A DNA stretch of 64,000 bases from Candidatus Omnitrophota bacterium (GCA_028717245.1 JAQUOD010000002.1:12772-76771), one strand, 5' to 3'. Shown: positions 29,072 to 64,000, counted from the first letter of the stretch. The notes: generated by a model not told the origin, from the sequence alone. Numbers and translations are program-made.

Positions 29072-29100
29072 TTGACAAACACCTATCCATTCAGTATACT
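29072..29100 (+). promoter_or_regulatory. consensus sigma70 promoter TTGACA-17-TATACT upstream of riboswitch leader of the giant gene
   Basis: exact -35, 17-nt spacer, TATACT -10. Confidence 0.55.
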
Positions 29101-29163: not shown

Positions 29164-29252
29164 GAGCGATAAAGGCAAACCCGCCGCAAGGCGGGGGCGC
29201 AAAGCCACGGATCCGACGGTAAATTCACTACGGATGGCCGGGTTACCGAAAT
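29164..29252 (+). ncRNA. c-di-GMP-I (GEMM-like) riboswitch aptamer
   Basis: GGCAAACC + GNRA(GCAA)-capped hairpin CCGCC/GGCGG + GCGCAAAGCC + second hairpin + GGGTTACCGA, matching hallmark GEMM elements in order and spacing. Confidence 0.65.
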
Positions 29253-29277
29253 AAGGTAACTCGGCTTTTTTATTAAA
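29240..29277 (+). terminator. riboswitch expression platform: hairpin GGTTACC-gaaataa-GGTAAC followed by CTTTTTTATT, 14 nt upstream of the TTG start
   Basis: 5' arm GGTTACC is also the 3' end of the aptamer, giving mutually exclusive structures. Confidence 0.55.
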
Positions 29278-29290
29278 AAGCGAGGCTAAA

Positions 29291-30300
29291 TTGAGTAACT
29301 GGCGAGAAAAAATCTGGTTAAAAATTGTTGCCCTGACCATTGCCGGAGTATTTTTATTTTCCGAAACCACCTGGGCAGCCAGAGCAGACTACCGCGTATC
29401 TATGCCTGAAACCGAGCAAACAAGCTACCCGCAAGTCCCCCAACCGAAATTGGGGGATTTTTTATTGAATATTTATCACGAAATAGCCTCTTTTATAGTC
29501 CCTTCAGCTCAAGCGGCTGAAATAGCGCCTTGCGGTGTAGATAAAGTAACTAAGAATATGCCTGTCTTAAATCCCAATTCTAATTGGCAAAAAGCCAATC
29601 AAACCGTAGTTTTATCAGAAAATAAGGCAATTGATACGGTTGATACAGTTGATACGGTTAAAAATAGCTTAATTGAAGAAACTGGAGATATGAGAGTAGC
29701 TGAAGCTGAGCAGAAGCCGCAAGGAGATGCGCCAGCGCCAACCCCAACGGTTAAGGATTCCGCGCTTCCTGCCCAAGCTCAGCCGCCTCAAGGTTCCGAG
29801 ACTCCCTCTGTCCCCGTAGATTACACTAAGATTAATAATACCAACGATCAAACCGGCTTTATTCCGATTAAACAAGCTCAATTACCTCAAGAAACCGCAG
29901 CGATTACTTTACATAGCAAGGATCCGCCTAAGATGAGCTTCAACTGCGCAGTCTCCGCACTCTCTCAACTCTTGTCAGATGTCAACTCCGCTATATTGGC
30001 TAAAAGCCTGGCCTTATATACTCAAGACGGCCAGACCTCTCTCTATGGAATCCAGCAAGTAGCCAAAGAATATGGTTTGGATCTTTACGCCAGCCAACTC
30101 TCCCTTACTGACCTCAAAAATCTAAATCAACCCGCAATTGCCCATTTAGACTTAGGAAATGGCCTTGGCCACTATGTAGTAGTGACCGGAATTGATGTTG
30201 AAGGCATTACCTATATAGATAACAGTATCACAAAAACCGTATCATTAACTGAATTCACTGCCCAATGGACAGGATATACGCTTACTACCGAGGCAGGTAT
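29291..30300. repeat. inverted duplication arm 2 (5' ~1 kb of giant plus-strand gene)
   Basis: see arm 1; encodes same TM + Pro-rich + C39-like module. Confidence 0.7.
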
Positions 30301-33300
30301 TGGCCAGGCCTTAAACGTTGAGCAGAGCTATAGCATAAAAGGGGCAGTGCCTTCTTTAAGCTATTTTGCCGCACCAGACGGTAATCTATATCAGAGAACC
30401 GGTGTGGGTGAAAATGGCCAGATGCAGAGCGTGCTCTATCATGGCAGCCAGACTTCTTCCTTTGGGTATAAAGGCACAAATTATCAAACCACCATCTCTG
30501 CCAATCAAGGCACAATCACTTATTCCGGCTATTTCCTGGGTGAAGATGGTAACCTGTATAAGATACCTGATAACAATTCCGGTCCAATCCAAGGCAACTT
30601 ATATGAAGGAACCCAGTCCCAGCCTTTTGACTATAAAGGGGCTACCTATCAAACCACCATTTCTGCTAACCAGGGCACCATCACCTACTCCGGTTATTTC
30701 AAAAGCGAAGACGGCAACCTCTATAAGATAACCGGCGCAGATGATGACGGCCAAATCCAGGGTTCCCTTTATGATGGCGAGCAGAATTCTTCCTTTGAAT
30801 ACAAAGGCACTACCTATCAAACCACTATCTCTGCTAACCAAGGCGTAATTATTTATTCCGGTTATTTTAAGGGCGAGGATGAAAACCTCTATAAGATTAC
30901 CGGCACCAGCGATGACGGCCAAATCCAGGGCACGCTCTACGACGGCAGCCAGATAGATTCCTTTGAATATAAAGGCGCTACCTATCAGACCATTATTTCT
31001 GCCAACCAAGGCGCAATTACCTACTCCGGATATTTCAAAGGCGAAGACGAGAATCTCTATAGGATAACCGGCGCAGATGAGGAGGGTAAGATTCAGGGCT
31101 CATTCTATGACGGATTTCGCGTTCTTGAGACCTATACTTATGCGGGGCAAAGCTACCAGATAGAAATGACTGCCACCCAAGGCCAGATTACTTATTCTGG
31201 TTTTTTTGTGGGCAGCGATGGCAACCTCTATCAGGTAACCGGCGCTGACGCCTCTACCGGCAATATCCAGGGCACTCTCTATACCCCTTCTACTGAATTG
31301 AATTGCGCGGTTCAGTCCTTAAGCGTGCTCCTGCCTGATATAGGCTCTGCTACTTTAACCCAGGAACTTCTTCCTTATACGGTTAATGGCCAGACGTCTA
31401 TGTACGGCATCCAGCAGGTCGCCAGCAAATACGGCTTAAACCTTTATGCGGTAGAATTCTCCTTAGAAGAAATCCTGCAATTAGGAGAAGGCGCCATTGC
31501 CCATTTAGTGGTGGGTAGCAATCAGGGCCACTGGGTGGCGATTTATCCAGAAAAAGGTATTTATATTGATAATGGCATAGAGAAATCCCTTGATGCTTCA
31601 GAATTTGCTACTCAATTTAGCGGATATATCCTAACCGTCCAATCGGATATTGGCCTGGCCTTAACAAATGAACAGATGCAGGGCATACAAGGGAGTGAAG
31701 TAGAACACTGGGATTTTAGTACGGATACGCCAGGTCCATATGAATTGGGTGGAGGAGCAGATGAGGGCGGCGTTGATATTACGATAAATGATGATGGCTC
31801 GGCTACTTATACCTATCCTGATGGTAGCTCAAGGGACGCCACATTTGATTCAGATGGTAATCTTACGAGCACTACTGATCATGACAGCGATGGCACTACC
31901 ATAATTAATGTTTATGGTGACGTAGATATTGGTATAGATGGAGACGAAGACGTAGACATTAATATAAACCAAGGGGGCAATGGATATATTGCTGTGGCCG
32001 GCGGCAATGTGGATATTACTATAAATGCCGGCGGCAATTTATCAAGTTTTACTATGACCGGCGGTAATGCAACTATTACTGCAAATGCAGAAGCTACAGG
32101 ATATATCGCAGGAGTAAGCGGCGGCACGCTCAATATCACAGATAACGGAGGGGACACGAGTGATATATATATAAATTCTGATGGTTATACCGGCGGTGTT
32201 ATAACTGTAGACGATAATCCAATTTCACTACCACCAGGCACACCACTATCCTATGAACCCGATTCAGATACTCCTGGGGTGGGTTCTTCTTCTGTAGCAG
32301 GTTATAATTGCGCAGTTTACGCCCTCTTGCAATTCCTCCCAGGTATAGGCCTTACAGCTTTAGCGCAAAAAATCAACGTAGAAAATTATAAATACCAAAT
32401 AGAGGCATTTAACAAAATTATAAGTAGTGAAATTTTCTTTGAAGTAATCATCAGAGTGGCTTCTGATTACGCTTTAGACTTAAACGCGGTTAAACTTACC
32501 TTAGAAGGGCTTCAGCAAATAGCAGAGCCGGCAATCGTCCATTTAGACTTAGGGAATGGCCAGGGCCATTATATAGTGGTTACCCAAACCGCAGATAACA
32601 CAATTACCTACATAGATAATGAGATCATCAAGACTGTATCAGAGGATGATTTTACGGCCCTCTGGACAGGATACGCCTTAATTACTCAACCAAATAATAT
32701 AGGAGAAGTTTTGGCCCTTCAGGAGATACTGAACATAAAAGGCGCTACGGTAACTATCGGAGGCCGTCGTGTTGGCGGCAGTAGTAGTAAAGGCAGCAGT
32801 AATTCAGGCGGCGGTAATACAACTGCTGGAGGCGGCAGCACTACTCAGCCCGCACAATCCCCTTCAATAGTCTCAGGCCCGCCAATGCCGCAAAGTTTAA
32901 AAGAATATCAAGATTTAAATAAAACTTTTCTCAATACCGACAAATATACTTATCAATATGACCGCAGCAAAGATATGCTAACCGTATACGACCATACAGA
33001 CCCCTCTAATGTTACAGCTATTATGGTTTATTATGATGCTACAGTTAGATCTGGGGATAAGCTCGTTGATGCTACTATTACCATAACAGTAGGTGGAGGA
33101 TCTCTTGTTGGCGGTGCCAAACCTACTTCTCCGGTTACGGTTATTGATGAGCCCGGTAAGGGTCCGTGGGTAGTTGATTTAACTGAAGTCTCTGATGGTT
33201 CACGGGTAACATATAATTTTATCGAAGGGACGACAACTACAATAACAGGTTCAGGAGGGCAAGATAATTCAACTATGGTTATAGATGATTGGAAAACAGG

Positions 33301-36300
33301 GCAAAAAACCACGCTTGACTATCAATGGAATCCTAGCCACGGGCAACAGCCTGTTAAGGCAACCGTAGTTAATGGCGGTACTACAATTGAGTACAATTAT
33401 AATATCTGGGGGCAGGTAGAGACGGTGCATACGGTAAATATAGATTCGTTGGGCCATATCGTTACTGATACAACACAGAACCCTAACGGCTTTTTCGTTT
33501 CCGAAGAGCCGCAAACTATTAACGGAATAACTTATAATGTCGCTTTAGATGACGATTACTATGGCCGTAACGCCGGGCAAGTCTTAGAATACAAAAATGA
33601 TAAGGGAGAGAAGTGCACCCAGATTTATGAGACGCTTTATATTGAGGGGAATATATTCACTGCTGTCCCTACTGAGTTTAGCGTAGTAGAGAACGGGATG
33701 TTGAAATATAGGGCAAATGCTACAGATTTTAGTGTGTATAAGGACGCAAGCGGAAATATAAATTTGAAGGTTGGGAAGAAAAACGTATGGGAGCATGTTT
33801 CTCCCTCCAACGACGGCTATCCTGGCTATCCTATTGTATATACTACTGATGCGCAAAATAAAATATTATCCATTGATATGGTTTTTGGGAGTAAGCCCGA
33901 GTTTACCAAAGTTGGCGCACAAGATATCTATACCAGCACAAACGGCTATGTGGTTGTAGAAAATGGTGAAATAAAAGACATAAATATTCTTAAACAAGTT
34001 GCGCAGCCTCAAAAAGATAATGGTGAGGTTTCAGCACCCAGCGTTAACCTCTCAGGCGAGCCGTATTCTGCTCAATGCTTTAGTGATTTTATCGGTGCTG
34101 GAATTTCCGATAAGAAATCTACGCCCACACCAACGCCTTCTCCAACGCCAACACCGACAGCTACACCGGCTCCGGCCCTATCTCCGACTCCAACTATAAC
34201 AGGTGGCGCATCTTCGCCTTCACCTCTTCAGCTAGTTATCGATACTTTTGCAGAAATAATCACTTTGGGAGGAGCTCAGACTCAAACCTATAATAGCAAC
34301 TGCGCGGCAAATGCTTTGAGCGTTGTCTTACCGGAAATAAACCCTTCCCTAAACGGAATAGATACTTATACCCTCTACAACCAACTCACTCCTTACACAG
34401 ACCAGCATAAGCAAACCTCTGAATACGGAATCCAGCAGATAGCTGCTAGCTATGGCGTAAAGCTTGATGCCACCAAAATAGATTATAATGGGCTAAGAAA
34501 TCTGGGGACACCTGCTGTAGCCCACCTTCAGCTTGATGAGGGTCAGGGACATTGGGTTGCGGTTAACCCTGAAAATGGTGTTTACACAGATAACGGCGCG
34601 ATTAATCCTTTAAATTCAGCAGAATTTAGCGAACATTTTGACGGTATTATTTTAGCCTCTACGCCTACCCGAGGCCCTCCGGTGAGTGTTGAAGAAACCC
34701 AAAACATAATGGGTGGTTTTGATTTTGGCAATGTGTTTTCTGGAGTTATTGGTGGAGTTTCCGGAGCAATAGGAGGCTTGATTTCCGGGTATGGCAATGG
34801 AGGAATTACTGGGGCAATTAATGGTGCAATTACCGGATGGCAAGCAGGATATAACGCAGGCAGTTCTACCGGAGTTTTTCAAGCCCCCAGCGCAGGATAT
34901 ACTGCAGGGCAACAATCTACAAACAGCCAACCTGTAACTAATTCAGCTACAATTCCAACTACAATAAATAATGGTTCATCCGGTGGCGTCGGTAGTTTAG
35001 GTTCTCTTCCGATTTTCCTCGCTATTGGTGCGCCTCTAACCATTCCTGCAAATAATCCCCCTCCCGCTGGCGCAGGAACTGGATTTTTAGATGACCCATT
35101 AGGTTGGTTGAATGACAATGCGCTTCAACCAGTGGGTAATTTCCTTACCAGAATCTTTGAACGGCAAGGGGAAGCTATGCTCGTTGAGGCCGAAGCGCAA
35201 ATGGCCGCAGGAAAGGCTATAGGTAATGCTATAGGTGATTACTTCGCTTCGGTGCAAAAATATGAATTGATGCAGCAAGAAAACGAAATATTGATGGCTG
35301 GGTTGATTGCAGACGTATTCACTCCGGATAAAGATTTTGATAAGATTGGGGCTGCGCAGGCGGCTCTAAGCGATGCTGATAAACTCATACAGGAGCACAT
35401 AGAAAATAACGGATATTTTAATACTTATGGAGACTTAGGAAAATATCTTTCAGATTTTATGGCTGACCGCGGTATCCCTGCTAATACCCAAGGGCCGCAG
35501 GACCAATCTGCAGCGCAGAAAGCTCTTGTTGATGCCTTGATAAATAAAGGCGTGGTCGATTTGGAAGAAATAGCAGGAATATCAACCACAGATATAAATA
35601 AATTATCCAAAAAGGACAGGGATACAATAATTGCTTGGGTCGGGGAAAAAGATAGTGAGATTGAAATAAGTAAAATAAATACTTGTTTGGAAGCCATAGG
35701 CATAGGTTTAGATAGTAATGGTAAATATGCGGTTACAGATACAGCTAAACTTCAAGATTCCCTGAGTTATCAAGGTGCGCAATACGTCACAAATTATTTT
35801 CCTTCATTTCTGACTCTCTTTTTGGAACCGACGGACACTGGTTTGGCTGCGCCTGCCAAGATATCCGGCGGAGAAGAAGCAAAAGCTAAATTGGCAGATT
35901 TACTGGGCGGGCTTAATTCCGATATTATAATGGATACAGCAGGTTTAAGCCTTAAAGAAAGAGAAACATACGGGCCTTTATTAAGTCAGTTAAAAGATAG
36001 CCCGGAAAATATTTCTATCAACTCTAAAGATTATATCACGCTTTTAGTTTTGGCGTGTAAATTTGTGGAGGGCGTAGAGGATAAAGCAGGAGTAAAGCCG
36101 GTTAACTCAATTTATACTAACCAGCCTGCGCCGTTGCCTGTGCCCGGGTCTCAGCCAGAGTTCGTCGGCCGAAATTCTTATAGCTGGGAAGTTATTGATA
36201 AAGATAAATTTGAGGCATTCAAAAAGGAAGTCGCTGAGGTTGAGGGATACGAATTCAAACGCAACTCTAACCTCATTAGCTCTTTACCCGAAGATATCAA

Positions 36301-39300
36301 GAAGAGCCTGGGTTTAACCAATGATGAAGGCAGACTTAATATTTTATCTTTTTCCTTAGACCCAGATGGGGCAACTGCTAAAATAAAACAGGCCTTATCT
36401 AAATATTCCGAATATTTTGGTATTAAGGTAGATAATATTGCCGCGCTTGACCTTTCCAGCCTTTACCCGCAATTAAAGGAGGTCAATGATAAGCTTGAGC
36501 TTTATTTAGGACCAACTAGGAAGGACGATGGAACATATATTTATGATTCGGATTCGGCTAAATTAGAAGATTTCCGCGATGTTATTGCCGGTAACCAAGA
36601 AATTAACCGCAGCCTTAGGCTGATTAGCTTTTTATCTGGAGAGGAACCCAAAGGTAATCTTTTAACATTAGCTTTAGACCCGGCAGAGGTAAGCCCCGAG
36701 ATAAAGCAGGCCTTAATTAAATATTTTGGTATTAATGTAGATAATATTGCTGCTGCTGATATTTCCGGCCTTACCCAGAAATTAAAGGATGCCAATGATA
36801 AGCTGGAGCTCTATTCGGGAACAACCATGCAGGCGGATAAAACATATATTTATGATTCGGCTAAATTAGAAGATTTCCGCAATGTTATTGCAGCAAGAGA
36901 AGAAATCAAGCGCACATACAGCCTTATTAACTCTTTATCCGAAGATAAAGATAGCCTTTTGTCCTCAGAGGGTTTAAACCCAGTGGGGGTAACTGCTGAA
37001 GCAAGGCAGCTTTTAGCCAAATACGGTTTTAATAATGTCAGTAATATTGCTGTTGTTGACTTAGCCGATTTAGCCTTAGACCCGGCAGAGGTAACTGCCG
37101 AAATAAAACAGGCTTTAGCCAAGCAGAACATTAATGTAGATAATATTGTTGCGCTTGACCTGCCCAGCCTTACCCGGCAATTAAAGGAAGCCAATGATAA
37201 GTTTGAGACTGATTTAGGGGCAATCAGGCAGGATGATGGGGCATATGTCTTTGATCAGATTAAATTAGAGGATTTTAGGGCGAATTATGAGACTGAAAAA
37301 TGGGCAGAAACCGTAGAATGCATTCAGAAGGCCTCGGTATTATCCACCGCTGTTGGGGTAGCCCTCTTTGAATTTAATGCCGCCAACTATGGCAATGGAA
37401 AGGAAGGCGTATACGAGGCCTATCAGAAAGTTTCTTTATTATCCACCGCTGTTCGGGTAGCCCTCTTTGAATTTAATGCCGCCAACTATGGCAATGGAAA
37501 GGAAGGCGTATACGAGGCCTATCAGAAGGCTTCGGTATTATCCACCGTTGCTCAGGCAGCAGTATCTTTCACGACAGCAGGCCAGCTGATTACTTTTTCT
37601 CAGATACTTGAGCCCCTGGCAACCACGGCTTTTAGAGAAACAACAAGGAAAGCCGTTGAGGATTTTGAGGCAGTAAAACTTTATAGCCAGGCAGTGCAAA
37701 ACGCTTTTATAAGCCAAAGAGGTAGCTTTAGTTATGCCTGGGAGAATTTGAAGTATGTTTTGGCAGGAGCAAACCCAGTAGTAGTTGTGGCGGCTGCCGT
37801 GGCTTTTGTTGCGATAGCAGTAGTACTACATGTTACAGTGCCTTTATTGATTACAGCTGGTTTAACCGGAGCTGGCGCAGGGGCATTTATTTGGAATGAA
37901 CGGGGTCCTGCAAAGAATTGGTCTCTACTGGAACGGATAGGTGCCACCATTGGTGCTGCTGCATTGGTACCTCTAATGGCATTGACTTCTGTGTCTGTGG
38001 CCCCCGCCGCTGCAGCCGCAGCAACTAACATCGCACCTCTTACAACAGCGTTAATGTTAATAAATTCTGGCCTGCAAGTTGCAGCTTGGGGTATACCCAT
38101 AAGATTTGCGATAGCGGCTGCGGAAGGAAGAGAGATAACCTTTGGGGGGTTTGTTAAAGATTTAGGTATAGATTTTGTGATTGGAGTTGCCTTTTTTGGG
38201 GTGCAGAGAATTTTAGGCCTTTTATCTGCTAATTTAAGTTCTACAAGTTGGATAGTACGTTTATTAAAGGTCTTATTTTACCCTACGGGAATCAAAGAGA
38301 TTGCTTTGTCGAGCGTAGCCAGGGGATTGATTGGCGCTGGAGCAGCATATATGTTCTCTCCTATACTCGGAGAAGGCGATTTATGGTCAATAGAGAATCT
38401 TGAGGCTTTTGGTTATACTTTTGCCTTTCTTGCGTTGGCTAATTTTGCTATCTTAGGGATTGACGGTTTATTAGTAGCTAAGGGTTGGGGCGCGCTGCCG
38501 CTTAGAGCTGGTTTACATATCGGCCTTGCCTATGCCAATTTTACTTTTGTCATAAATTCAGCCCAGCACAGCGGGGGTTATACATATGCCCTCGGAGACA
38601 AACTTGCTTTTTATGGTTCACAGTTTGGATGGGGATTTTTAGCCGGTTTTATTGGGGTTTCCATAGCTTCTTTAATAGGGGTAGAGAAGGTAGTCAGGTT
38701 TCTTAAGTCTGCGTTCATCGGCAAGGGGAGATTTTTTACTTGGCCGCTTCTTGGCGAAGGAATAAGCCTTGGCGCAAGTAAGGTGCTTAATCGCGAATGG
38801 AAACCTGGATGGGGAGTTTTAGCAGGATTAGGATTAGTTTTATTAAAGCCGGTGGTTTTCTTATCTCCCGCCACATCCGCCTCTACGCTTATTAAGGTGG
38901 CGAGGTGGTTCTTAGTGGGTGGGGGTAGATTTCTTACTTGGCCGGTTATCAGCGTATTCATCAATAATGCCTTTCTTGGCGGCGACCCAATATTAGCTGG
39001 TTTAATCGGGCTTAATTTGGCTTTCTTGCCGTCATTGGGTAGTAAGGGGTTGCTAAGCTTAAGGCCTGCGGGTTGGATGGCGGCTGTGCGTTCAATTGCC
39101 GGTTGGGCATTTCTGGGAGGAATTAATCGCCTTACATTTAACTATTACTGGGATTTGAATTGGGGCGCTCAGAAAGGCGGTTGGGATGGGTTCTGGGGAT
39201 ATGTCTGGCAAAGAGGCGGTTCTCAGGCATTTATTGAAGGGGCTTATCAGCTCGCAATAGCGCGGCTGGCAATTTTGATAGGCCGCTCCTTATACCCCAA

Positions 39301-51300: not shown

Positions 51301-54300
51301 TGAGATAGGTAGAGACGAACAGAGTGGCAGATTTAAATTAGGTTCTCAGATTTCAAGCGTATGGAGTGATACTCAAGTGTCACGTAGGCATACAAGGATA
51401 GCAGTTTTAGATGGCGGTTTTATTGTAGTTCAGGATTTGAATTCTTATCATGGCATATATTATCGTGAGGTTAATAATGGCAGTGGTAATGTAGTTTCAG
51501 CTGATAGCGGCAAACATACTCAAAGTAATAATCGCGTTGAATACAGAAATGGCAATAAAGTTTTAATCGGAGACGTTGTTGGTATTATTGAGGTTAACTA
51601 TGCAGGTAAAAGAGGTATATTTAGAAGAGTTGTATTTGTGAGAGCCGAAGTCGCCCAAAACGTGGCATACGGATTTTATCCGCAGGGTAGCAGTGAAGCT
51701 TACGTTATATTAGAGCCGGATATGAGAACAGAGGGTAGCAGATTAGGCAAGGCCAGCCATGAAGGGAGACACGGGCTTGATTGGATGGAATTTGGTAGCC
51801 AAATGAATGAAATAGACAGAGAATACACCGCGCGCTTAACTACACTGGCAGAGAATCCCGATGACGACGAAGTAAGGGCAAGTTTTGGCAGGCGCATAGC
51901 CGAATATCAACGAAGGTCATTAGACAACCATGCCGAAGCTACACGACGCATTATTACCAATTTCATGGATAGAATAAAAAGATATATTTTTGGAGAACTA
52001 TATTATATACCTGCAGAACAAATTAGAAAGATAGCAAAAGAGTTACTCGAGGAATTTTATCAAGGTCATTTCGGATATATACCTAATTATCCTATGATTG
52101 GTAGACAGTCCATTACCTCTCCTAAAATTCAACATCTCTCTTCCCGCACCACCCTGCCTTTTATGGGTTTGGCGGCAGTGGGGCTTGTTCTGTCAATCCT
52201 CTCTGGCAATCTAGCACTGGTAGTGATTTCAGGTATCTATCTTGCCTGGAAGATATGCCAGCTATTCCATAAGGGCGAGTTTGATCCAAAAACAGGCAAG
52301 ATAGTTTATACAGACGCAAGCCTTGCTGCCGAAGCCCATGAACAAACCCATAAGTTACTGTGGAATTTCGGTATTAAAAATAGATTTATCTCTGAGGCTT
52401 TAGCCCAGTTGTTAGATTTACTAGTAGGAGCGGGAAGGCTTATTGGGCGTGCTTATGAGCGCGGCGCTGGTCTATGCCTAAAAGGACCAGAACAATTATT
52501 GCGAATACTGAAACAATTATTGCGGCCGTTAATGCCATATCATTCACCTCGCTCTTCTTTCTTGGGTGGGCTGACAGTTATTGCAAGGGTAATTAATAGA
52601 ACTAAAGCAATGCCCAGGGCTGTTCTAATGGTTGCAGAGAATTTAACAAAGAATTCGGATGCCAGCATAGCAGCAAAAAGAATGCTGGAGAGATTAAGGC
52701 ATATTCTAAATATCCCTTCTCTGCGGCCGTTATTTAGAAATCCGTTCTCTACCATCACAAAATCTATATCACACCTTACAAATCCTGTCAAGGGAATTCT
52801 ACCCCAGCCGCAATCCACGCAGCTTAACGTAGGGCTACGAGCCGGGTTAATCGCAGCCTCCCTTGCGGCTGCAACAACTCCTCAGGAGGATCAAAAAGTA
52901 GACGAGGAATCTATAATCCGTTCTGCTAACGAATTCTTCTTAGGAGCAGTAAGGCGGATTAAGGAAAAGACCGGCATAGATGGAGAATTTACGCCCCCAG
53001 AAATAATTTTTGTTGGTCGATTAACTAAAGAACAGGATTACCGGCTCAAAACACTTGAGAGTAGGGAATTGTCCGGAAAGCTAAGCCAGGAAGAGCTGGA
53101 AGAGAAACAAAAGTTGGAAAGTAATTTGAGGAATAGTTCGGAAGCTAACTACGATAAACAAAAGAACCAAATAAGGTTACTTAAGGGAAAAGTTATCCGG
53201 CAGGGAGCGTATCGCCATGAGGAATTACATGCAATCAGGCACCAATTTATTTTACAACGGTTCGGAGTTATTGAAGTGAATGAAGGCTATAGCATGCTGG
53301 ATCGGTACCTGAGTAGTATTTGTAAAGTAGAAATAGAAGGGAAAAAGGTAAAAGTGATTCCTGCGTATATGATTGAATTCTTCGCGCTATTAGATGAGAT
53401 GATTTCAAAAGAACTTGGCTTAGCCAATGGAGAAGATACGCGAGAACTAAGTTTGCGAGGATTAAGAGAGGCAGCTGAATATTTCAAGGGCGGTTTTGAT
53501 ACAAAGTTTTATGAAATATTAGAGTTGGGCGAACAAGTAATTGGGGTGCTTGAGGATATCGCTCGGCAAGATAAAGGAATTGACGAAAAAATTCAGGAAG
53601 CAAAGAATGCCCTTGCGCAATATGCGGATAAGGTTAGGGAATTAGGGAAGAGTATACTAAAGAACCAAGCCTATCTAAAACTACTTTGTCTAAAAACAGA
53701 CCCGGAGAAGTACGTTGGCTTATTACGTGATTTTTTTGAGATTATGGTGTCATTGTCTAAAACTTATGATAAAGCATTGCTTGAGAATGGAAGTTTAGGC
53801 GTTGAATTCACGTCCTTAAAGAAAGATGTCGCTGTATATAAGGAATACATAGAAGAGAATTTTGATTTTGATAGAGATACGTTAATATTAAATGGTAATG
53901 ATTCTGTGGCGCCCTATCTAGCGACTAAAATATTTATTACAGAAAAATACGAAGAAATAAGGAAGAATTGGGAAAAGATTTTTGTAATGGACGCTACAGA
54001 GGTAGAAGAGGTTTACTTTAAAGATGTTTTTAAAGCAATGGAGCAGATAGCGGAAGATTATGAGAGGAATATTATAAAAAGAGACGTAAGTGTGGATATT
54101 TCTAAAGAGGACATAGAACAAACTCAGGCCCTCTCCCTACGCACCACCCTGCCTTTTGTGGGTTTGGCGGCAGTGGGGCTTGTTCTGTCAATCCTCTCTG
54201 GCAATCTAGCGCTGGCAGTGATTTCAGGAATTTATCTTGTTTGGAAGATATACCAGTTGACCTGTAAAGGTGAATTTGACAATTACATAGGCAAGATAAA

Positions 54301-57300
54301 GAGCGCTGAAGGCCTTGGAGGGAAAATCCACGAGCAGACTCATAAGTTACTGTGGAATCTCGGCGTTAAGAATAGATTCGTCTCTGAGGTTTTGGCTCAG
54401 CTGTTAGATCTACCGGTAGGAATAATCGGGTTGGCTGGCAAGATGATTAGCGGGCGTGCTTGCGAGATTGGCGCTGTTGGACGTTTGACGCGCGTTTCGG
54501 AAGCATTAAGGATAGAGGCTTTTAAAATCAGGCAGTTCATAATAAGGCGTATTTTATTACGGAAACCAATAACACAAATGAAAGGTTATTTTGGCCAGGC
54601 GCGGCCGGATTCTTATGAAAAGGACGTACCGGAAATAATAGTAGGAGCCCCTGGCGAAAAACCGGTAAAATTAGAAGAAACGGAATTATCTAAAATAGAA
54701 AGAAAAACTACTTTTATTACCGAAGGAGTAGCTAGTTGTTCAGTTATAATTTATATAGCACAGACGCCAACCGGTTTATTTGCGTACCCTTTACATACAG
54801 TTATCTGGAACGATAGTAGGTTCCAGGAAATAAATAAGACAATTATTTCTAAGTTTAATTTAAAAGGAGCAGGAAAGATACGGGCTATAGTTATCCCAGG
54901 CCCTGTAGCCACTTTTAAGAATTGGAATCTGCAAGAGATTTTTGGAGATAAGGTTGATTGTTATGTAATACCTGAACTGTTATTGAGGATACCCAAGATA
55001 GAACACAGAAGGGTAAGGATTAGTTTTGGAAGCAAAAAATTAAGAATAGATGTGTGGGATTATAAAGATCGTCTTAAGGGGCCTTGGATGCCACGGAGGC
55101 CTTCGAGAAAGAATGTATTCTATTATTCCATAACCCCAGCCCAGCCAACCCCAGCCCGGCCGCGGCAGAAAACAGGGCTGTCCTCAATTTTATTTAATCC
55201 TATAAGTATCTTCGGTATTCCTGTAAAGATGCAATGGGCTTATCCTGTTATGTTGGCAATAATTATTATTGCTGTGGGAGCGACGCCTATTGGTTATTTA
55301 AATGGAGTATTGTTAGGATTGGGCTTAACTGCCTCGATTTTATTGCATGAGCTTGCACATTCGATGGTAGCCAATAAATACCAAAAGAATAGCTTGAAAG
55401 ATATTAGATTTACCGCCTTCGGCGCGCAAGCTAATATAAAAATAAATGGTAACATCAACATGTGGGAACAACTCAAAATACACTTTGCTGGGGCAATAAT
55501 GAATTTTGCCTTAGCCGGGTTATTGGTTGGCCTGAATGCCTTATACCCTAATGCTTATATTTTGGGTAGTTTAGGCTTAGTTAATGCAATATTAGGCGTA
55601 TATAACCTACTGCCGGTATTCCCGCTGGATGGCGGCATGATATTGTTGACAATTGCTAATAAATTTATGGATTCCAAGAAAGCCGCTTATTTAGCCGTTT
55701 ATGTAGCAAAGGGATTCGCAGTGGCAATGGCGCTGGCTGGTTTGGTAAGCCTACTATTTGGATTTTACCCCTTTGGCACATTAGTCTTTCTTGGCCTGTA
55801 TGTTTGGTATGCGGCAGGCAAAGAAGATAATTTTGAAGAAATTTATTCAATTGAAATTAGCAGCCCCGATAATTTTGAAATAAAGAAACAAAGGGAGGTT
55901 CCGGAGTATATAGGATCATTAGCGGAACACATGATAGCTCTGTATTTTTCTCCATCAAAGGTAGCCCGTATTAGCGAATTATTGAATATACTGAAAGAAG
56001 GAAGCTTTGAGCGAGGGGAACCCTATCTAATAAAAGGAGATTTTAGAGACGAAGATATAAGAGAATTATTAGATACTGCTATGAAAGAGAAAGCCATAGA
56101 GATAGGGTTGGTTAAAGCAGTTATTGCTGATGTAGAGGTTAGTTTTTGTGTGTTTGGAGGAAAAGAAGGCGTAAATTACCATAAACTTCTGGATATATTA
56201 GGCAAAATAAAAACTGGGCTAAGGCTGAGAGTCCACAATCATTATGGTAAGCAATTTTTACCGAGCGGGCCTGATTGTCCGCCTCTTACGGAGTATGCCT
56301 TCAGGCTATATACCTACTCAGAGATAGGTTTTATTGAATATGGTAGAGGCGGGGATAATGCGCTTATTAGAGAAAGCTTTAAAGATAAAGCAGGTGAAAA
56401 CTTGATTGTTTCGTGGGTACAGGGCAACAGAAGATTCCTCAAGATTATTCCTAACTCATCCGGTATTCTATTATGCAACGATTATCAGCCAAAAGATGTT
56501 TACAAAATAATCACGCCAATATTAAAGGAGAAGATAAAAGAAGGAGCTTCAAGAATAGCCTTCATAGAATCTCGCGGTGCGTGGGTAGAATGCGATGCAT
56601 CTGCCCAAGAATATTCTCGGCTTAATTCGTCTTATCCGGATTGCCCTATTTCAGGTTTACCTACCCAGCCGCAAGCTACTAAGGAGTCCACCGCCGCGCC
56701 AGCCCCAGCCCAGCCGCAGCGGGGAATGGAACCAGTTGCCGCCAATCAAAAGAATGATAATCAGATACGCATAATTCCGTTAGAGTCGGTTAAACATATA
56801 CCTTCTGTTACGGGCAAGCTGCCGGTTGTGCTTGAGACCGACAGTATGATTTTTGTGACTTATGATTATGAAATAACTACCGCAGCTTCCGAGCGGCCGA
56901 TACTGCAAACAAAAGCGGCAGGCCCTTGTATAGTTTTAATACTATATGATAAGGTAAATAAAGTAGGGCTTCTCGCTCATCGTTATAAATCTCCTGCCAG
57001 CGAAGAGATAGGGCAAATGCTTGTTGATTTGGAAAAATCCGGAGCGGATAAAAAGAATTTAACATTCACAATCCTCGGGGGTTGGAGCGGTTCAGATGAT
57101 CCGGGAAGTAACAGGCCTTTAAAAGAAGGGCTCAGGGATATGCTTCTTCAAAAAGGAATAGGTTTGGGCGAAATTGAATGGAATCCTACCTTTAGCCGTT
57201 CAGTTGCATTTGATACCAGAACAGGCAAGACCTACGATTTAGTGGCGGAATGGGAATTGTTCAGATGTCCTTCAAAATATATAGATGTCCTCCCGAATAA

Positions 57301-60300
57301 GATTGATTTTGAAAGTCTAATTAGAGGCGCAGAAGTCAAGCCAGCAGTCTCAGCCGCCCAGACGCTGCGGGGAAAAACAAGCCTTATAGGCAAAGTCTTG
57401 CGGAGAATTTTGCGGGCAGCGCAGATAGCGTTGGCAATAATCGTCTTATTTGTTATCTTTGCCCAGCCGGTTGCAGCAGCGGCAGAGGCAGTTGTTGTAG
57501 GCAACAGCACAGCGTCGGTAGCGGCATTTTCACTCTCAGCAGCTGTACCTTATATAGGTATAGCCATTGAGGTAATGCTTCTAGGAGTAATGGTTGTTTT
57601 GGGGGTGTTTCGCCATTACCGTATGCGCGAACAATACTGGGGAGCGATTAGAACATTATTCGTGTTTTTAATCTCAGGAGTTATTCTTGCTGGGCCGGTT
57701 TTGGCGCTTGCTGCATTCTCAATCCTTCCTCCTGTAAGTACAAGCCTAACCGTAGGGATAGGTATTGGGATAGGAGTAGTGAATGTAGTTTCATTTATTA
57801 TACTTATACTTAGAATCTATAGCGGAATAAGGGTTTTCTCCCGGGACAACCCCTGGTATGAGGATGTTATGGTTACAGGAGCAGCATTGATATGGGGGCC
57901 AATAGCAGGTTTCTTATATTTACTGAAAAAGATAACTGATGCCATACAAGTCAGAAAAGAAGCAGCGCAGAAAGATAATAAAAAGCTCAATGAAGAAATA
58001 AAAGGAATAAACGCTGACCTTAAATCTGCCGCTAGAGCATTTAGAAAAATGAAGGTAGTAGGGGATGAGGAAAGATTCAAGGAGGTATGCGGCTCCTTTG
58101 ACGCCGCCTATGACCGTGGCTGTGCGATACCGGCAGAAAATAGGCCTCACTCTATGGCGGAAGCCTTAAAGGAAGCATCTGATGCGCGCGAAGAAGCCCG
58201 GAAGAGGATAGAGCAGGATAAAGCTAAAAAAGAAGCCAAGCAGCCAACAGTAACCCAAAAGACTACCCAACAGGCTAATCAGCCAAAAAGAGCCATTGAT
58301 ATTTATAGAATTATTGCCGGTATATTTACTATCAGTGGAGCAGTTTCCTTGTCTGCGGCCCTCTATCTACTAATAGTAGGAATAAGATTACTCGTTACAG
58401 GAGACTATGCTAGCACGGTATCGCCTTACATTAACATAGTATTTTTCGTTTTTAGCGTCAGCGTAGTTATAACCTTAGGTTCTCTATATTATTTGTTTTT
58501 TAAAGAAAAGCTGGCTAAACAAGCCAAGCAGGCAAAAGAAAACGAGCGTCAGGCAGAGAAAGACAAGGCTTATAAGCAGGCCAGGAGAGCAGTAGCAAAA
58601 TTATCCAGATTAGATGATATGGGAGAGTTCTACACAAGGCTAAAAGCCATAGAGGATAAATATGGCATTACATTCATTGTTGAAGATCCAGCTTTACAGA
58701 AGGCAGGCGCTCAGGTTAGAAAGAATCAAGCTGCCAAAGAGGCTAGAGAAGAGCGGGCTAAGAAGCAAACCCAAAAGACAGATAGCGAGACCGAAGAAGC
58801 CAAACAGAAGGCCGCTTCTTTTGTTAAGAAACTTGCCGAAGCCGTTAAAGCTAATAATAAAGCCAAGGCCGATAAGAAGGCTGCCGAAGAAGCAGCCAAG
58901 AAAAAGGCCAAGGCAGCAAAGGCTGGGAAAGAAGCTAAAGCGTGGAGTTATGATACTCTACACCCCATGATGAAGAGTCTTATTGAATCGCACTTAGAAG
59001 TTTTATCTTCTCGGTCCGACATAAATTCTTTAGAAAAGCAGAGGGCGGAGACAGAAAACGAAATAACGGATAACACCAATAAAGGTTACTTAAATAAAAA
59101 AGAGAGCGAACACTATCAGAAGAAGCTCCGCAAGGCCTATTCATCCCGCGCGCAGCAATTAATAAAAAAGAGAATCAAAGCCGAGATTGTTTCAAGAAAA
59201 CCAAAGGATGAATTAGAGAGAATCCATAGCGAAATCGTTGGCGTAATTAATAGTCTTTCCTTAGACGAGAAAGACAAAGCAAAGTTAAAAGGAGAAGCAG
59301 ATAATAAATTAAAAGTAATCCAGGAAAAGCAGGTTAAGCAGCAAGCTAAGAACAAACCCAGCGCCGCTCCGGCAAAAACAGGATTAGGGGCGTGGATTAA
59401 ACAGAAGGCCGAGAAGCTTACCGAAGCCGCAAAGAAGGCATGGGATAAAGTCAGGGCAGGAAAGGCCCAGAAGGCTTATGATAAGCGAGAAAACAAGCGC
59501 AATGCAGAAATCAAAAAATATAACCGGCGGATCGGCCCGGCGCTTAAGAAAATGGCCTCTGCTAAGACAGTTGAAGCTGTGCGTAAGGCAGAGGCTGATG
59601 TTATTGCCTTGGATAATCAGTACCCGTGTTTTAACAAAGAAGATAGGGCCGCCCATATTAAATCCCACCGTGACCAGGCAAATTCTATAATAGATAATAT
59701 TAATACAGAAAATACCAAGAAGGCTCAAGAGAAATTAGAACAGAAACAAGCACGCCAGGCAGGAAAAGACCAGAAGGCTGCTGATAATAAAGCCAAGAAA
59801 GAGGAAGAGAAGAAATTAAAAGCTGAAGCTAAACTCAAAAAGGACGCAGAGAAAAAAGCGCAGGCAGCAGCAGATAAATCCAAAACAGCAGCCAAGAGTA
59901 AACCAGTAGCCCAAGAAAATTCCGAAAGAGGGCCTCCAGTTGCAACAGAAGATAAGCCAATAACCCCAGCTCCCAGCGCACCTGCTGAAAAAGAAACAAC
60001 TCCAGCCAGCGTTGAGAGCGATCTTCTCCGCGATCCCATAAATGCCCTCCTTTTGATTTTAGTAGTTTATGGTTTCTACGGCCTTGTGGCGCTTCCTTTA
60101 GCATTGATTTCTCCTGATATTTATCTTGCCGCCCTGCTTGGCGGATTAGAGCTCGCTGTGGGTGGGTGGCTTCTTATGTTATGGATATTTAGAGGCAAGC
60201 CCGCTAAAGCTGAAGTCACAGCAGCACCAGTAATCCCAGCAGCACCAGCAGCCCCAGTAGTATCAGAGGAAAAAGTTCCTGAGGCACCCGCCACAGTTAA

Positions 60301-63300
60301 ACCCGCAGAACCCAAAGAAACTCCTCAACCTCCTCAAACCGGAACTTCCTACGGTTATCCTTATGGGTATGGCGACGGTGCTAGTCAGATACCTCAAGAA
60401 GATTTAAAAGATATACAGAAAACTACAGAAGACCTGAAGAAAAAATTAGATGAAGTTCAAGAAGGAGAACAAACCGAACAAGAGATTAAAAAGCGCGTAG
60501 AAGAATTTATTGAGAACAAAATCTCACCAGAGCCAAGAGAAGCAGTAAGAGCTGAAATCATGAGAAGGTTGGTTGATTTAGCTGCTACCAACGAAACCCT
60601 CCGCAAGGTTTTAGTTGGAATGTTCTTCGGTGTTGAATACCCAACCCCAATTAAAAACGTATTGTTTATCCATACTGCATTAGATGGTATGGGTGATGAG
60701 ATGATAGCCGCTAGTTTATTGATGGCTCTAATGATAGCTTATCCCGATGCAAAGGTTACTATTGCTTCGGACCGCCCCTTCCGTTACAACCAGAAGAGAG
60801 TTAGGGTTGTTTCTCTGCAGCGAATTAGCAGGTATAGAGCAACCGGTTTAAATAGAGAAGACCTGGGCGATGCGGTAAGCGTTATGCCGGAGAATGAAGA
60901 AAAAATAGATTCACTAGCACAGAAGGATTGGGATGTGGTTCTCTGCTCCAGAGAATTGACTATAGGTAAAAAAGAAAACATTCCGGAATTTAAAAAGGCA
61001 AAGGTTCTGGTTGTGCTTCCTGAATGGCCGGACAGAAATGTCTTGGCCAGAGTCAGGACCCATGACGGCGCCTGGTACCCCATCGCAGGCCATGGGAATC
61101 AGTATGAGATATGCCTGAGTGTAGCCCGGCTTTTAGGCATAGATGTCAGGGCCAGCGAACCAGAGCTTTTTATATCCAGAGAATCAAAAGAATATGCATA
61201 TGTTGCCCGGAGGGTAAACGAAATGAGGGTATCTGGCGCAAATAAACCCGTATTGTTCATTAGTTTGTTTGGAAGTACCGCTCCACTTAAGGGTTTCCTA
61301 GATATGAATAAATTAGCTCGGGTAGTAGAATACATCCGAGATTTAGGCTTCGTTCTCGTTGTTGATACCAGTCATGGCAATAAGATTGGAGATAAAGAGA
61401 TGAATGCCTTTAGGTTAGCTATTAAGAATTGGGATGCTATCTATATTATCCAGGATATAGAAAATGATTATAGAGTAGCCCTTTTAGAATATTTCATATA
61501 TTTTGCAGATGGCGCAGTAACTGTTGACTGCGGCCAAATGCATACGTTCCATGCATTGGGTAAGAATAAGCCTTTATTAGCCCTGTTTAGCAAGAAGATG
61601 TATTTTAATAAATCCGCATGGTTCCCGGCTTATGCAAATTCTTTAATTCAACAGGCAATCGAATATGAAGGTACATTCGATGAGTTGACAGAGAGAAATA
61701 TCCAGCAAATAGCTATTATCAAAGATTTAATTCTTAATCATCCTAAATATGTAATTGATTCTCAAAAAGCAGGGGCACCTGTATTTGCCAATCATGAAAG
61801 CTTTAAAGCCAAGATTAAAGAGACAATCTCTGATTTATTGTTGATATATTTGCGGGAGAAAAGGTTGGATTGCGACAAGGTAGATTCCTTAGCCCGTATC
61901 ATAGCTGCAAACCCAGAATATTCTGAGTATGCCTCTAAGGCATTATTTAAAGATTTAGTCGAACCATTGATGGATAGCTTCTTGTTAGAAGGCAGGAAAG
62001 CTTATATAGAAATATTCACCGGAATAATTATGTATCTGCGTAAATACCCACAGGCAAAGATTATCGATGAATATCTGAACAGGATGGCAGTAGAAAATGC
62101 CGAACAGATGATACAACGAGTGAATAGGCTGATGCAGACGAGGCCTTTTGCTCCAAGCCGCAAAAATAGGATTAAAAAGGCCTTTGTGTTCTCCCGCATC
62201 ACTATTGGCGCAGATGTAGCTATAACAGGTATAGTGCTTGAGCGCATAAAAGAGGAATTCCCGGATGCAGAGATTTATTTCGTAGCTCCTGCTAAACAGG
62301 CTCAGCTATTCGGCGCTGATTCAAGGATTAAGATAATGGAGCTTCCTTTCCAGCGCCAGGGAGGGATGCTTGCCCGCTTGGAAAGCTGGATAGATTTAGT
62401 GAAACTTATCCAGGCCAACACCGCCGGGCTCAAGGACGATGAATATTTAATCGTGGACCCAGATAGCCGTATACCTCAATTGGGTATTATGCCTCTGCCG
62501 GTAAGGTTAGAGAATTACTTGTTCTTTAATAGCGGTGCCAGGGAAGACGAAATAAGAAACGGCGTGTTGACGGTTGGCGAGGCGACAAACCGCTGGTTAG
62601 ATGAAGTATTCGGCAAAAGAGAAAAGCCCATCTATCCAAAGGTTTGGATTAGGGCGCAGGATAAAGGATTTGCGGATAAAGTATTCAGCCACAAGAGGCT
62701 GCAAGGTAAATTCGTTGTAACTATAAATTTAGGTTTTGGCGGCAACGGCAATAAACGTATTAGCCCTGAATTTGAAGCAGGATTGATTTTAAGATTGATA
62801 GAGCAGGGTTCGACGGTTATCCTGGATAAAGGCTTTGGCCCCGAGGAGAGCGAACAGATAGACGCGATTATTAAATATATACAGGACCACGGAAAGACTT
62901 CGGCCTATGTTAAAAACGATACAGATACGATAAATGCATTTTTGAACGTAGGCGATTTTGATTTGGTTGTATTTGAAGGTAACATCGGTGAACTTACAAG
63001 CTTAATCTCAAGAAGCGGCTATTATGTCGGCTATGATTCGCAAGGCCAACACGTAGCCGCTTCTTTATCTATACCGGAAACCGTAATCTTTGCCGGATAT
63101 ATCAGCGATGTCTTTAGGCAGAGATGGCATCCTTACGGCGCAGGAGAAATAAAGGTTATAGCGGTTGATGCTCAGAACATTGATAAAAAGGATATTGATG
63201 AAGATAAGATAATTGCTTCCGTTGCAGCAGATGTAAAGGCTAAGATGCAGGAGGCGGCAAAAGCAGCAGAAGAGAAGGCTAAACAGGAAGAGCCTGCGCC

Positions 63301-64000: not shown

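Follow-up and report, generated by a model that had tools for sequence, protein, structure and literature searches.

A giant gene of a Candidatus Omnitrophota bacterium, probably controlled by a riboswitch and possibly self-processing

A stretch of 64,000 nucleotides (nt) from Candidatus Omnitrophota bacterium (GCA_028717245.1, JAQUOD010000002.1:12772-76771), referred to here as the window, contains a reading frame that opens at position 29291 and continues without a stop codon to the last base. Omnitrophota giant genes are among the largest known in any organism, and hardly anything is known of the timing of their expression or of whether their products exist as single chains. The questions raised by this locus are whether the long frame is one real gene, what would govern its expression, and what would become of so long a product. 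The explanation that best fits the locus as a whole is an Omnitrophota-type giant gene that is probably controlled by a riboswitch and whose product may process itself.

29291-64000, plus strand: giant open reading frame (ORF) of at least 11,570 codons that runs past the end of the window
29282-29285, plus strand: Shine-Dalgarno-like GAGG, read from the sequence, 6-9 nt 5' of TTG 29291

The original prediction claimed a stop-free frame of more than 34.7 kb and more than 11,570 codons from TTG 29291, and proposed as checks a recount of frame-2 stops over 29252-64000, HMMER/Pfam tiling and structure prediction. When stop codons were recounted in all six frames, the last stop in frame 2 (2 mod 3) was TAA 29252-29254, and no TAA, TAG or TGA was found from there to position 64000, so that 34,746 nt (29255-64000), equal to 11,582 codons, are free of stops. 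The two remaining forward frames of the window carry 1,604 and 1,504 stops per approximately 21,333 codons each, or about 7.3%, and arithmetic from the stop frequencies puts the chance probability of a stop-free run this long at about 10^-380. Competing ORFs in the other frames of the 29.3-64 kb region do not exceed approximately 170 amino acids (aa). A codon model trained on the genes upstream of the giant ORF gave +0.08 to +0.34 bits per codon in frame 2 in all eleven 3-kb tiles, while both shifted frames were negative, and the base composition (overall G+C 43%) is uniform over the eleven tiles. The stop recount and the codon model thus upheld the claimed frame. TTG 29291 was taken as the start codon; in the alignment it coincides with the initial ATG or TTG of every homologue, the proteins reading MSNWREKIW..., and the relatives show the same GCGAGG...TTG or ATG arrangement at their starts. 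An alternative genetic code was rejected as the cause of the long ORF, since none of the three stop codons occurs in the frame and code 11 leaves the neighbouring genes intact. At third codon positions, G+C is 0.34-0.42 in the giant, 0.44 in a neighbouring Tc/RHS-type toxin gene, and 0.50-0.57 in the efflux, regulatory and TolC-like genes.

There is hardly any doubt that this is one continuous coding frame from TTG 29291, which encodes at least 11,570 aa comprising a leader, four C39 peptidase modules and a body that threads the membrane many times. Equally secure are an M50 intramembrane metalloprotease and extensive unannotated tracts in the body, to which a probable GT9-family module can be added.

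The region directly 5' of the start codon holds three elements on the same strand as the giant gene.

29072-29100, plus strand: sigma-70-like promoter TTGACA-17-TATACT, 11/12 matches in a consensus scan (a consensus match only)
29165-29251, plus strand: aptamer of the cyclic di-GMP (c-di-GMP)-I riboswitch class (Rfam RF03167)
29236-29275, plus strand: intrinsic terminator TTTTTTATT, with a 12-bp stem, 7 GC pairs, a 7-nt loop and a T-run (terminator scan)

The promoter lies 65 nt 5' of the aptamer, which ends 39 nt before the start codon and matches RF03167 over model positions 1-80 of 80 with 73.9 bits (gathering threshold 59) and an E-value of 1e-15; with a purpose-built covariance model it scores 98.6 bits. 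The terminator hairpin occupies 29236-29266 and is followed by the T-run, which ends 16 nt before the TTG; the aptamer's 3' strand doubles as the 5' arm of the hairpin. The two structures overlap by 15-19 nt in 11 of the 12 loci examined, and in the remaining one, L003, they overlap with a longer loop. Over eight loci the terminator helix is 99% paired, with two compensatory pairs. An alignment of 41 distinct aptamer sequences gave 97.7% of cells paired and compensatory changes at 12 of 21 pairs, a result reached by none of 500 shuffles and by slid controls only up to 52%; this alignment was fitted to the covariance model, which favours structure, and an independent MAFFT alignment gave 88.7% paired cells, again reached by 0 of 500 shuffles. 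An aptamer with an overlapping terminator stands 5' of all three of the first homologues found, and aptamers were present in 10 of 11 genome loci. Our own covariance model, built from five aptamer copies, found 53 aptamers in 383 kb of related loci, a very high local density, and an aptamer lies 20-175 nt upstream of 27 of the 28 distinct ORFs that begin with the giant's leader (the 27 include that of the window). The exception, L009, keeps terminator and aptamer fragments at 2300-2475 (GGCAAA...AGCCACGG...) with the first hairpin gone, and looks like a decayed riboswitch.

These features make it very likely that the giant gene is under riboswitch control. The consensuses of RF01051 and of the 'GGC' variant RF03167 differ at a single core position (CGC-A-AA in the canonical form, CGC-G-AA in the variant), where the window carries the canonical A, as do the 11 related aptamers that were read, and c-di-GMP is predicted as the ligand on this ground. 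A terminator whose 5' arm is the aptamer's 3' strand is the standard geometry of an ON switch: bound ligand would keep the shared strand in the aptamer, so that the terminator would be unable to form. It is accordingly probable, on a reading of the sequence, that c-di-GMP turns the giant gene on.

Further aptamers, some in tandem, were observed in related loci on the minus strand at L007 4696-5114, L008 4912-5287, L013 3316-3418 and 5335-5437, L014 6845-6942, L027 4105-4197 and 6499-6590, and L006 11-118 and 741-849. They lie downstream of the TolC-like gene, 5' of a PilZ-like 124-aa ORF and of other signal-peptide proteins, among which a 'DYPxGYLGPGxREYLN' family of 514-863 aa recurs. Within the window no aptamer was found 5' of the Tc/RHS gene or of the TolC-like gene, even with search filters off. 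The window also carries, at 2773-6418 on the minus strand, consecutive genes for a FIST sensor, a GAF histidine kinase and a REC-GGDEF response regulator. Since the cyclase signature of the regulator is GGDDF instead of GG(D/E)EF, it may or may not be active; the ligand of the riboswitch could be supplied locally from here.

In order to describe the predicted product, domains were searched with Pfam on 4000-aa and 1000-aa tiles, NCBIfam, PDB sequences, self-BLAST, hydropathy and motif inspection. The N-terminal part contains a leader followed by peptidase modules and repeats.

29291-29530, plus strand: conserved N-terminal leader, W-x-x-K-x-W-x-K-x-x-A-L...F-x-F-S-E-x-x-W-A-A, then S-F-I-x-P-S-A-x-A-x-E (alignment)
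29924-30346, plus strand: C39 module 1, aa 212-345, with a double-glycine (GG)-leader-like site ending at aa 352, ALNVEQSYSIKGA followed by V (Pfam, PDB, motif)
30338-31282, plus strand: Gly/Thr/Tyr-rich repeats of approximately 55 aa each, aa 350-664 (self-BLAST, copies 45-59% identical)
31292-31696, plus strand: C39 module 2, with a site ending at aa 802, ALTNEQMQGIQGS followed by E (Pfam, self-BLAST, motif)
32300-32746, plus strand: C39 module 3, with a site ending at aa 1152, VLALQEILNIKGA followed by T (Pfam, self-BLAST, motif)
34292-34717, plus strand: C39 module 4, with a site ending at aa 1809, PVSVEETQNIMGG followed by F (Pfam, self-BLAST, motif)
48275-48838, plus strand: divergent fifth C39-like domain, aa 6329-6456, with a GG-like motif ELSKKEIESIKGK ending at aa 6516 (weak)

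A hydrophobic signal or anchor segment is present at the N-terminus, as had been predicted, and was found both in the sequence and in the leader alignment. The four C39-like domains of the original prediction were likewise confirmed: Pfam Peptidase_C39 (PF03412) matches four stretches (aa 212-345, 668-800, 1004-1150 and 1668-1806; E 1.5e-45, 154.8 bits), with the catalytic Cys and His in every copy (NCA...GH[YW]V...(Y/L)xDN). The domains are separated by Gly/Thr-rich repeats. Among PDB sequences they match ComA (1.3e-6) and PCAT1 (1e-4); the NCBIfam models for ATP-binding cassette (ABC) exporters match the peptidase part alone, far below their cut-offs, and neither ABC_membrane nor ABC_tran has a Pfam match anywhere in the ORF.

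A short motif of the form L-S/T-x-x-E-M/L-x-x-I-x-G-A/G/S follows 20-25 aa past the last conserved block in 25 of 25 distinct complete C39 copies, taken from the window and the related loci by profile. Gly at -2 and Ala, Ser or Gly at -1 are present in all 25, Leu at -12 in 20, Ile at -4 in 19, Met or Leu at -7 in 15, and Glu at -9 and at -8 in 14 each. Since the motif fits the double-glycine leader consensus LSXXELXXIXGG, and C39 proteases cleave after G-(G/S/A) (PMC1538908), it was read as a C39 substrate. A relaxed pattern has three matches in the giant, all behind C39 domains, compared with 0.45 expected anywhere in shuffled sequence, and in L009 a LysM domain begins straight after the predicted cut. 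The fifth C39-like domain is weak (self-BLAST against module 1, E 2.7e-5; Cys 6352, His 6437). The motif ELSKKEIESIKGK, approximately 60 aa past it and outside the training set, scores 13.3 with the position-specific scoring matrix against 12.8 for the 95th percentile of shuffle maxima. Taken together, the peptidases and the motifs behind them suggest that the C39 modules cut the giant into fragments. A prepilin-type reading of the leader (G|FTLIE) was rejected by eye, since neither the spacing of the Glu nor the order of the hydrophobic residues agrees with it.

The leader has no Pfam or NCBIfam match, and it heads 27 other distinct ORFs as well as the neighbouring Tc/RHS gene. With the first 1200 aa, a word-index protein search gave three matches only, all of them N-terminal fragments with the same leader and C39, two from metagenome-assembled genomes (MAGs) named Candidatus Omnitrophica or Omnitrophota; a leader-plus-C39 profile located 11 loci in species-representative genomes and 21 in metagenomes. 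The closest homologues, and the identical gene order, occur in MAGs titled Candidatus Omnitrophota or Omnitrophica. In the related loci the bodies past the leader and C39 are unrelated to that of the giant. Six of the leader ORFs end within the fetched stretch, at 119, 362, 769, 871, 1301 and 1610 aa, and others run off it at 2291, 2699, 3111, 3476 and 4037 aa. It is highly likely, on these alignments, that we are dealing with an Omnitrophota gene family in which a common leader and C39 head precedes very different bodies, from approximately 120 aa to more than 11,570 aa.

Two further genes accompany this head.

28735-29061, plus strand: zinc-ribbon-like basic ORF of 108 aa, directly 5' of the promoter and riboswitch (tblastn)
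26598-28415, minus strand: TonB_C and OEP (TolC-like) fusion gene, divergent from the giant (Pfam, NCBIfam)

The 108-aa ORF begins with CxxC...CxxxxC, has a very basic tail and no Pfam or NCBIfam match, and is found at the same position in approximately 30 of 33 related loci at 41-67% identity (tblastn). The fusion gene encodes an outer-membrane factor with an N-terminal TonB C-terminal domain, and is syntenic in nearly all 33 related loci, which suggests that it is a dedicated partner of the leader-bearing proteins. In most loci the order is the same: an RND pump gene and the TonB_C-OEP gene are transcribed in one direction, and the zinc-ribbon ORF, the riboswitch and the leader gene follow in the other. 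A 12/12 sigma-70 consensus was observed at 28514-28486, on the side of the TolC-like gene.

The head is also carried by a gene on the other side of this cassette.

18351-26411, minus strand: Tc/RHS-type toxin gene with the same leader and C39 module (Pfam SpvB, TcdB_toxin_midN, RHS, C39; Rhs_assc_core)

This gene bears the giant's leader, C39 module and GG-like site, the C39 module being 97% identical in DNA to that of the giant. It has a promoter-like site of its own, TTGACA-17-TATATT, and no riboswitch. Its product of 2,686 aa contains SpvB, FG-GAP, TcdB_toxin_midN and RHS repeats, Rhs_assc_core at aa 2319-2398 and an unannotated tail of approximately 300 aa. Since the same head stands on varied bodies, including a Tc/RHS toxin, we regard it as a probable export and processing cassette for polymorphic cargo. 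The shared C39 coding part forms a 377-nt inverted repeat of 97% identity (29942-30318 and 25450-25826), and the shared leader coding part forms another of 245 nt and 84% identity (26170-26414 and 29288-29532). Recombination between the inverted repeats would invert the segment with the promoter, riboswitch and TolC-like gene, and would swap bodies between riboswitch-controlled and uncontrolled promoters. The near-identical repeat may let the riboswitch-controlled head pass between cargo genes. The inverted repeats are also likely to be a break point for short-read assemblies.

The body of the giant past the C39 modules consists mostly of unannotated sequence, in which the following were recognized.

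36191-37198, plus strand: three repeats of approximately 110 aa, aa 2301-2636 (self-BLAST, about 40% identity)
37748-40456, plus strand: polytopic hydrophobic region of approximately 10 segments, aa 2820-3722 (Kyte-Doolittle scan)
51302-51478, plus strand: FHA-like segment, borderline, aa ~7338-7396 (Pfam)
52124-52507, plus strand: transmembrane (TM)-hairpin and HEQTH module, copy 1, aa 7612-7739 (self-BLAST, HExxH motif)
54119-54514, plus strand: TM-hairpin and HEQTH module, copy 2, aa 8277-8408 (self-BLAST, HExxH motif)
55205-55849, plus strand: Peptidase M50 (site-2-protease type), aa 8639-8853 (Pfam, PDB, motifs)
57923-60055, plus strand: Lys/Ala/Glu-rich region broken by TM hairpins, aa ~9545-10255 (composition, sequence)
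61784-63244, plus strand: GT9-family (heptosyltransferase-like) module, aa 10832-11318 (HMMER, Pfam on relatives, NCBIfam)

The M50 domain is well marked (Pfam E 1e-13, 51.5 bits against a cut-off of 27.2; PDB 3b4r, MJ0392, 7.5e-15; SpoIVFB also matched), and its motifs HELAH (aa 8686) and LDG (PLDGG, aa 8779) are intact and both within hydrophobic segments, in agreement with the M50 protease originally named. The PDB sequence search over the whole ORF returned C39 and M50 relatives only. The GT9 segment of the giant itself is below the Pfam threshold (16.8 bits against 22), and NCBIfam RfaQ matches it at E 4.9e-8, far under the equivalog cut-off. An exhaustive HMMER search gave 660 relatives of the module, mostly stand-alone proteins of approximately 500 aa and 301 of them at E <=1e-30, the best having 49% identity (E 2.7e-139); 8 of 10 tested relatives passed the Pfam threshold for GT9, and the source of one relative calls it a heptosyltransferase. 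Two GT9 domains had been claimed: one stands, by way of these relatives, and no second was found in the visible ORF. An earlier word-index search with aa 10401-11569 had given no match, a false negative in view of the 660 relatives, and for this reason the unannotated regions are not claimed as orphans. The same type of search, which scores only 8000 candidates, gave no match for aa 2760-3760.

Along the ORF, 42 hydrophobic 19-mers with a Kyte-Doolittle value above 1.7 occur in clusters, the TM topology being read from hydropathy alone. By the same measure the polytopic membrane region of the original prediction was recovered as approximately ten hydrophobic segments at aa 2820-3722, and a separate ORF of L009 holds a stretch 33% identical to it. 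The two HEQTH module copies are 57-85% identical to each other by self-BLAST, the TM-hairpin part 85%, and have faint matches alone, to DUF3703 and Tox-MPTase4; the duplicated module may be a small membrane-anchored metallopeptidase-like unit. As to the other domains once proposed, FHA proved borderline, at 21.0-21.7 bits against a Pfam cut-off of 20.7 and covering just model positions 2-47 of 67; of the Lys/Ala/Glu-rich coiled-coil, the composition was borne out at aa ~9545-10255; and the CheD-like fold was dismissed as noise (Pfam E 0.18, 12.4 bits against a cut-off of 25).

The points that weigh against a riboswitch-controlled, self-processing giant gene of the Omnitrophota type are considered here with the explanations that compete with it. 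It is very unlikely that the long ORF is wholly or partly an assembly artefact, whether a chimera pieced together from related strains or paralogous genes, or a misjoin at the inverted repeat that the Tc/RHS gene also carries. Such an explanation would draw on the 377-nt repeat at 29942-30318 and 25450-25826, and on short-read Logan contigs with this locus (present in runs SRR22315506 and SRR22315508), which end next to that repeat. A chimera, however, must keep one frame stop-free over 11,582 codons, with coding signal and base composition uniform along eleven tiles, while internal repeats are few and divergent by self-BLAST and related genes on independent contigs exceed 4,000 codons before leaving the fetched stretch. 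The 377-nt repeat was the only structural risk found; it could mis-join the first 1 kb or so, but not the remaining 33.7 kb, and a wrong join there would alter just which body follows that first part. Regarding the lineage, the window holds no rRNA or other marker that could be placed, and some relatives come from TPA MAGs titled Planctomycetales or Planctomycetia at NCBI. It is also unlikely, although less so than an artefact, that the RNA responds in some other way, by binding another cyclic dinucleotide (c-AMP-GMP, for example, or some ligand of the GGC variant class), by acting as an OFF switch, or at the level of translation. Both the ligand and the ON logic are read from sequence, RF03167 outscores RF01051 among Rfam models in the window and at several loci, and close variants of the fold bind c-AMP-GMP (PMC7266159). 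Against a different response stand the canonical A in the window and 11 related aptamers, the strand shared by aptamer and terminator in 11 of 12 loci, the PilZ-like and other secreted-protein genes behind sister aptamers in related loci, and the pilZ genes that West-Roberts et al. report downstream of giants (10.1101/2023.11.21.568195).

The most serious competitor, which we nevertheless consider rather doubtful, is that the C39 modules do not cut their own chain. They would instead process other double-glycine substrates in trans, such as proteins of prey or partners or the other proteins that bear the leader, or serve as non-cleaving binding or chaperone domains of the HlyB kind, with the motif behind them a tethered pseudo-substrate, an inhibitor or a structural tail, and the product would stay one giant chain. 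West-Roberts et al. raise both kinds of role, cleavage of the giant or of other substrates and action as type I secretion chaperones (10.1101/2023.11.21.568195). The strict literature leader pattern is present in only 4 of the 25 C39 copies, NCBIfam leader-peptide models gave a single weak match (E 0.094) among ten post-C39 tails, and the putative fifth site ends in G-K rather than G-G/A/S. The motif might be no more than a conserved tail at the C-terminal end of the domain, and the predicted location of the modules is extracytoplasmic, whereas the C39 domains of ABC exporters are cytoplasmic. The retention of catalytic Cys and His in all copies argues against a purely non-catalytic role, however, and self-cleavage is favoured by the fixed distance of the motif behind every copy, by its invariant Gly at -2 and small residue at -1, and by a domain boundary (LysM in L009) that begins right after it. 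Three results bear on the explanation as a whole: no SecA family match was obtained at E <=1 in 1000-aa tiles of the visible 11,570 aa; the upstream 29 kb of the window has no type II secretion system (T2SS) or pilus genes, and no glycoside hydrolases either; and, of the checks originally proposed, Pfam tiling gave C39, M50 and the borderline FHA, and AlphaFold2 run without an alignment gave unusable models for both segments, with a mean predicted local distance difference test (pLDDT) score of 42 for aa 10960-11569 and 39 for aa 353-802 (all-beta).

With the giant gene taken as riboswitch-controlled and self-processing, the following sequence of events is proposed. A transcript from the sigma-70-like promoter would enter the c-di-GMP-I-class aptamer. 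Without ligand the terminator would form and transcription would halt 16 nt before the start codon, and with ligand the aptamer would retain the shared strand and RNA polymerase would read into the gene of more than 34.7 kb, so that the cell would commit to a very costly product only at high c-di-GMP. High c-di-GMP is the usual signal for the attached lifestyle. The N-terminal part of the product would be exported by a Sec-type route, after which each C39 domain would cut at the GG-like motif that follows it by 20-25 aa. Cleavage after residues 352, 802, 1152 and 1809, with aa 6516 as a possible further site, would yield free head fragments and a membrane-anchored body, the leader-C39 head thus serving as a removable export and processing cassette. 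We put at about even the chance that the modules do cleave themselves after Sec-type export and that the product is a polyprotein and not a single chain of at least 11,570 aa. The literature on this class, together with the occurrence of LysM, Tc/RHS, M50 and GT9, hints that the freed fragments and the anchored body might act on cell envelopes in host or prey contact, as proposed for Omnitrophota giants, a role that we hold to be doubtful. Somewhat less doubtful, and still tentative, is the suggestion that the TonB_C-TolC-like gene, the zinc-ribbon ORF, the ON riboswitch, the leader and the self-cleaving C39 and GG modules form an undescribed c-di-GMP-gated deployment cassette, which would launch polymorphic cargo: small proteins, Tc/RHS toxins and, at the upper end, giant polyproteins exceeding 11,000 aa.

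If this cassette reading is true, giants of the class would be regulated, self-dismantling polyproteins whose expression is tied to an attached or predatory switch. If the 90-nt RNA binds c-di-GMP and lifts termination, as is expected of it, the expression of giant genes would be connected with the messenger that usually governs attachment, and if the protease module of approximately 150 aa cuts at its own apparent site, these genes would be shown to encode polyproteins; neither test needs a culture of the organism. That one conserved head sits on such different bodies suggests that giants are one extreme of a polymorphic secreted-protein family rather than a separate class. Should the riboswitch and self-cleavage readings fail, one more member of a published gene class remains.

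Besides the TolC-like gene and the Tc/RHS toxin gene, the upstream 29 kb of the window contains genes for an RND pump and a two-component system as well as transposase-like genes. The AcrB-type RND genes are two in tandem, at 7962-14677 on the minus strand, and the second has a C-terminal HTH_DeoR-like extension (aa 1133-1177) that was also seen in L004, L010, L014, L035 and L037. Between the RND and Tc/RHS genes, at 14674-17613 on the minus strand, there is an AAA_14/DUF4143 ATPase gene and an IS200-like Y1 transposase gene. Since relatives have an MFP gene between the RND and TolC-like genes, this ATPase/transposase block looks like an insertion that splits the usual cassette. A zeta-toxin-like P-loop kinase ORF (574-1161, plus strand), tRNA-Leu(GAG) at 2611-2692 and tRNA-Glu(CTC) at 6474-6548 were also observed.

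Two claims of the original prediction concerned rarity, and neither survived comparison with published systems. The combination of domains was thought never to have been described in one protein, and Omnitrophota giants of like architecture had already been published (10.1101/2023.11.21.568195; 10.64898/2026.06.07.730766); those of West-Roberts et al. have a signal peptide, C39 domains at the N-terminus, numerous TM helices, and both glycosyltransferases and peptidases (10.1101/2023.11.21.568195). Genes above 30 kb were called extremely rare, and in this lineage they are not: in Nielsen & Lui's samples from deep groundwater and the Baltic, a protein of at least 10 thousand amino acids (kAA) is found on 24-28% of Omnitrophota contigs, and Omnitrophota proteins reach 147,155 aa (10.64898/2026.06.07.730766). 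The gene described here is a further Omnitrophota-type giant, of a class already known. With the giants of West-Roberts et al. ('Archaeovorin' type) it shares many TM helices and glycosyltransferase and peptidase domains in mostly unannotated sequence, as well as an N-terminal signal peptide with C39 domains nearby. It differs in length, being at least 11.6 kAA and, over its visible part, below their 30 kAA cut-off, and in having no SecA_DEAD, HEAT or TPR domains and no T2SS or pilus neighbours in the visible part; a divergent SecA_DEAD or SecA preprotein-binding domain is present in most but not all of those giants (10.1101/2023.11.21.568195).

The 10 kAA length used by Nielsen & Lui is exceeded here (at least 11,570 aa). 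Among their 916 Omnitrophota proteins of at least 10 kAA is a 24-protein 'PF03412 Peptidase C39' architecture cluster (10.64898/2026.06.07.730766), and compared by description the present protein shares with it this size, a dominant C39 Pfam signal, a membrane anchor and mostly unique sequence, with M50 and GT9 modules also here. The flanks that they report hold T2SS, pilus and glycoside hydrolase genes and only two TonB-domain genes, whereas here the conserved neighbour is a TonB_C-OEP fusion. What appears new relative to both papers is the riboswitch, the leader, the post-C39 sites and the flanking cassette. Neither paper mentions riboswitches or c-di-GMP control (West-Roberts et al. have 0 occurrences of either term), the leader and the TolC-like/zinc-ribbon cassette, or a cis double-glycine-like site behind C39, although West-Roberts et al. 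suggest in general that C39 domains may cut giant proteins, and describe pilZ genes downstream of giants and GGDEF domains within them (10.1101/2023.11.21.568195).

With c-di-GMP-I riboswitches (GEMM-I; RF01051/RF03167) the RNA shares the fold with covariation, the position in a 5' leader and a terminator expression platform, of which 16-18 nt also belong to the aptamer. GEMM RNAs control genes for membranes, motility and environment (PMC7266159), whereas in the present case the RNA stands in Omnitrophota before giant and polymorphic secreted-protein genes, an association of which no report was found in the literature searched; a search linking riboswitch, Omnitrophota and c-di-GMP gave no relevant report. 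The C39 modules share with PCAT1 and ComA the C39 fold by sequence, the Cys/His pair and a substrate-like L-S-x-x-E-L-x-x-I-x-G-G/A/S motif. Unlike those exporters, the giant has neither an ABC transmembrane domain nor an ATPase domain, it carries the peptidase and its putative site on one chain, repeated four to five times, and its modules follow a signal peptide and are probably outside the cytoplasm.

MARTX and the large clostridial toxins are very large secreted proteins that a cysteine protease domain of their own cuts at defined sites, and in the LapA/LapG/LapD system c-di-GMP decides, post-translationally and through a dedicated cysteine protease, whether a giant surface protein is deployed. 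The likeness to these is one of logic only, an analogy, since the protease families are unrelated (C80 and C93, as opposed to C39) and control would here be transcriptional. With polymorphic toxin systems (Zhang et al. 2012, PMC3482391) the family shares a conserved N-terminal trafficking and processing head and a variable C-terminal cargo. The C39-like domains of that survey are themselves toxin domains (Tox-PL-C39) and not modules for release at the N-terminus (PMC3482391), and the cargo in the present family can exceed 11,000 aa and include membrane-embedded enzymes.

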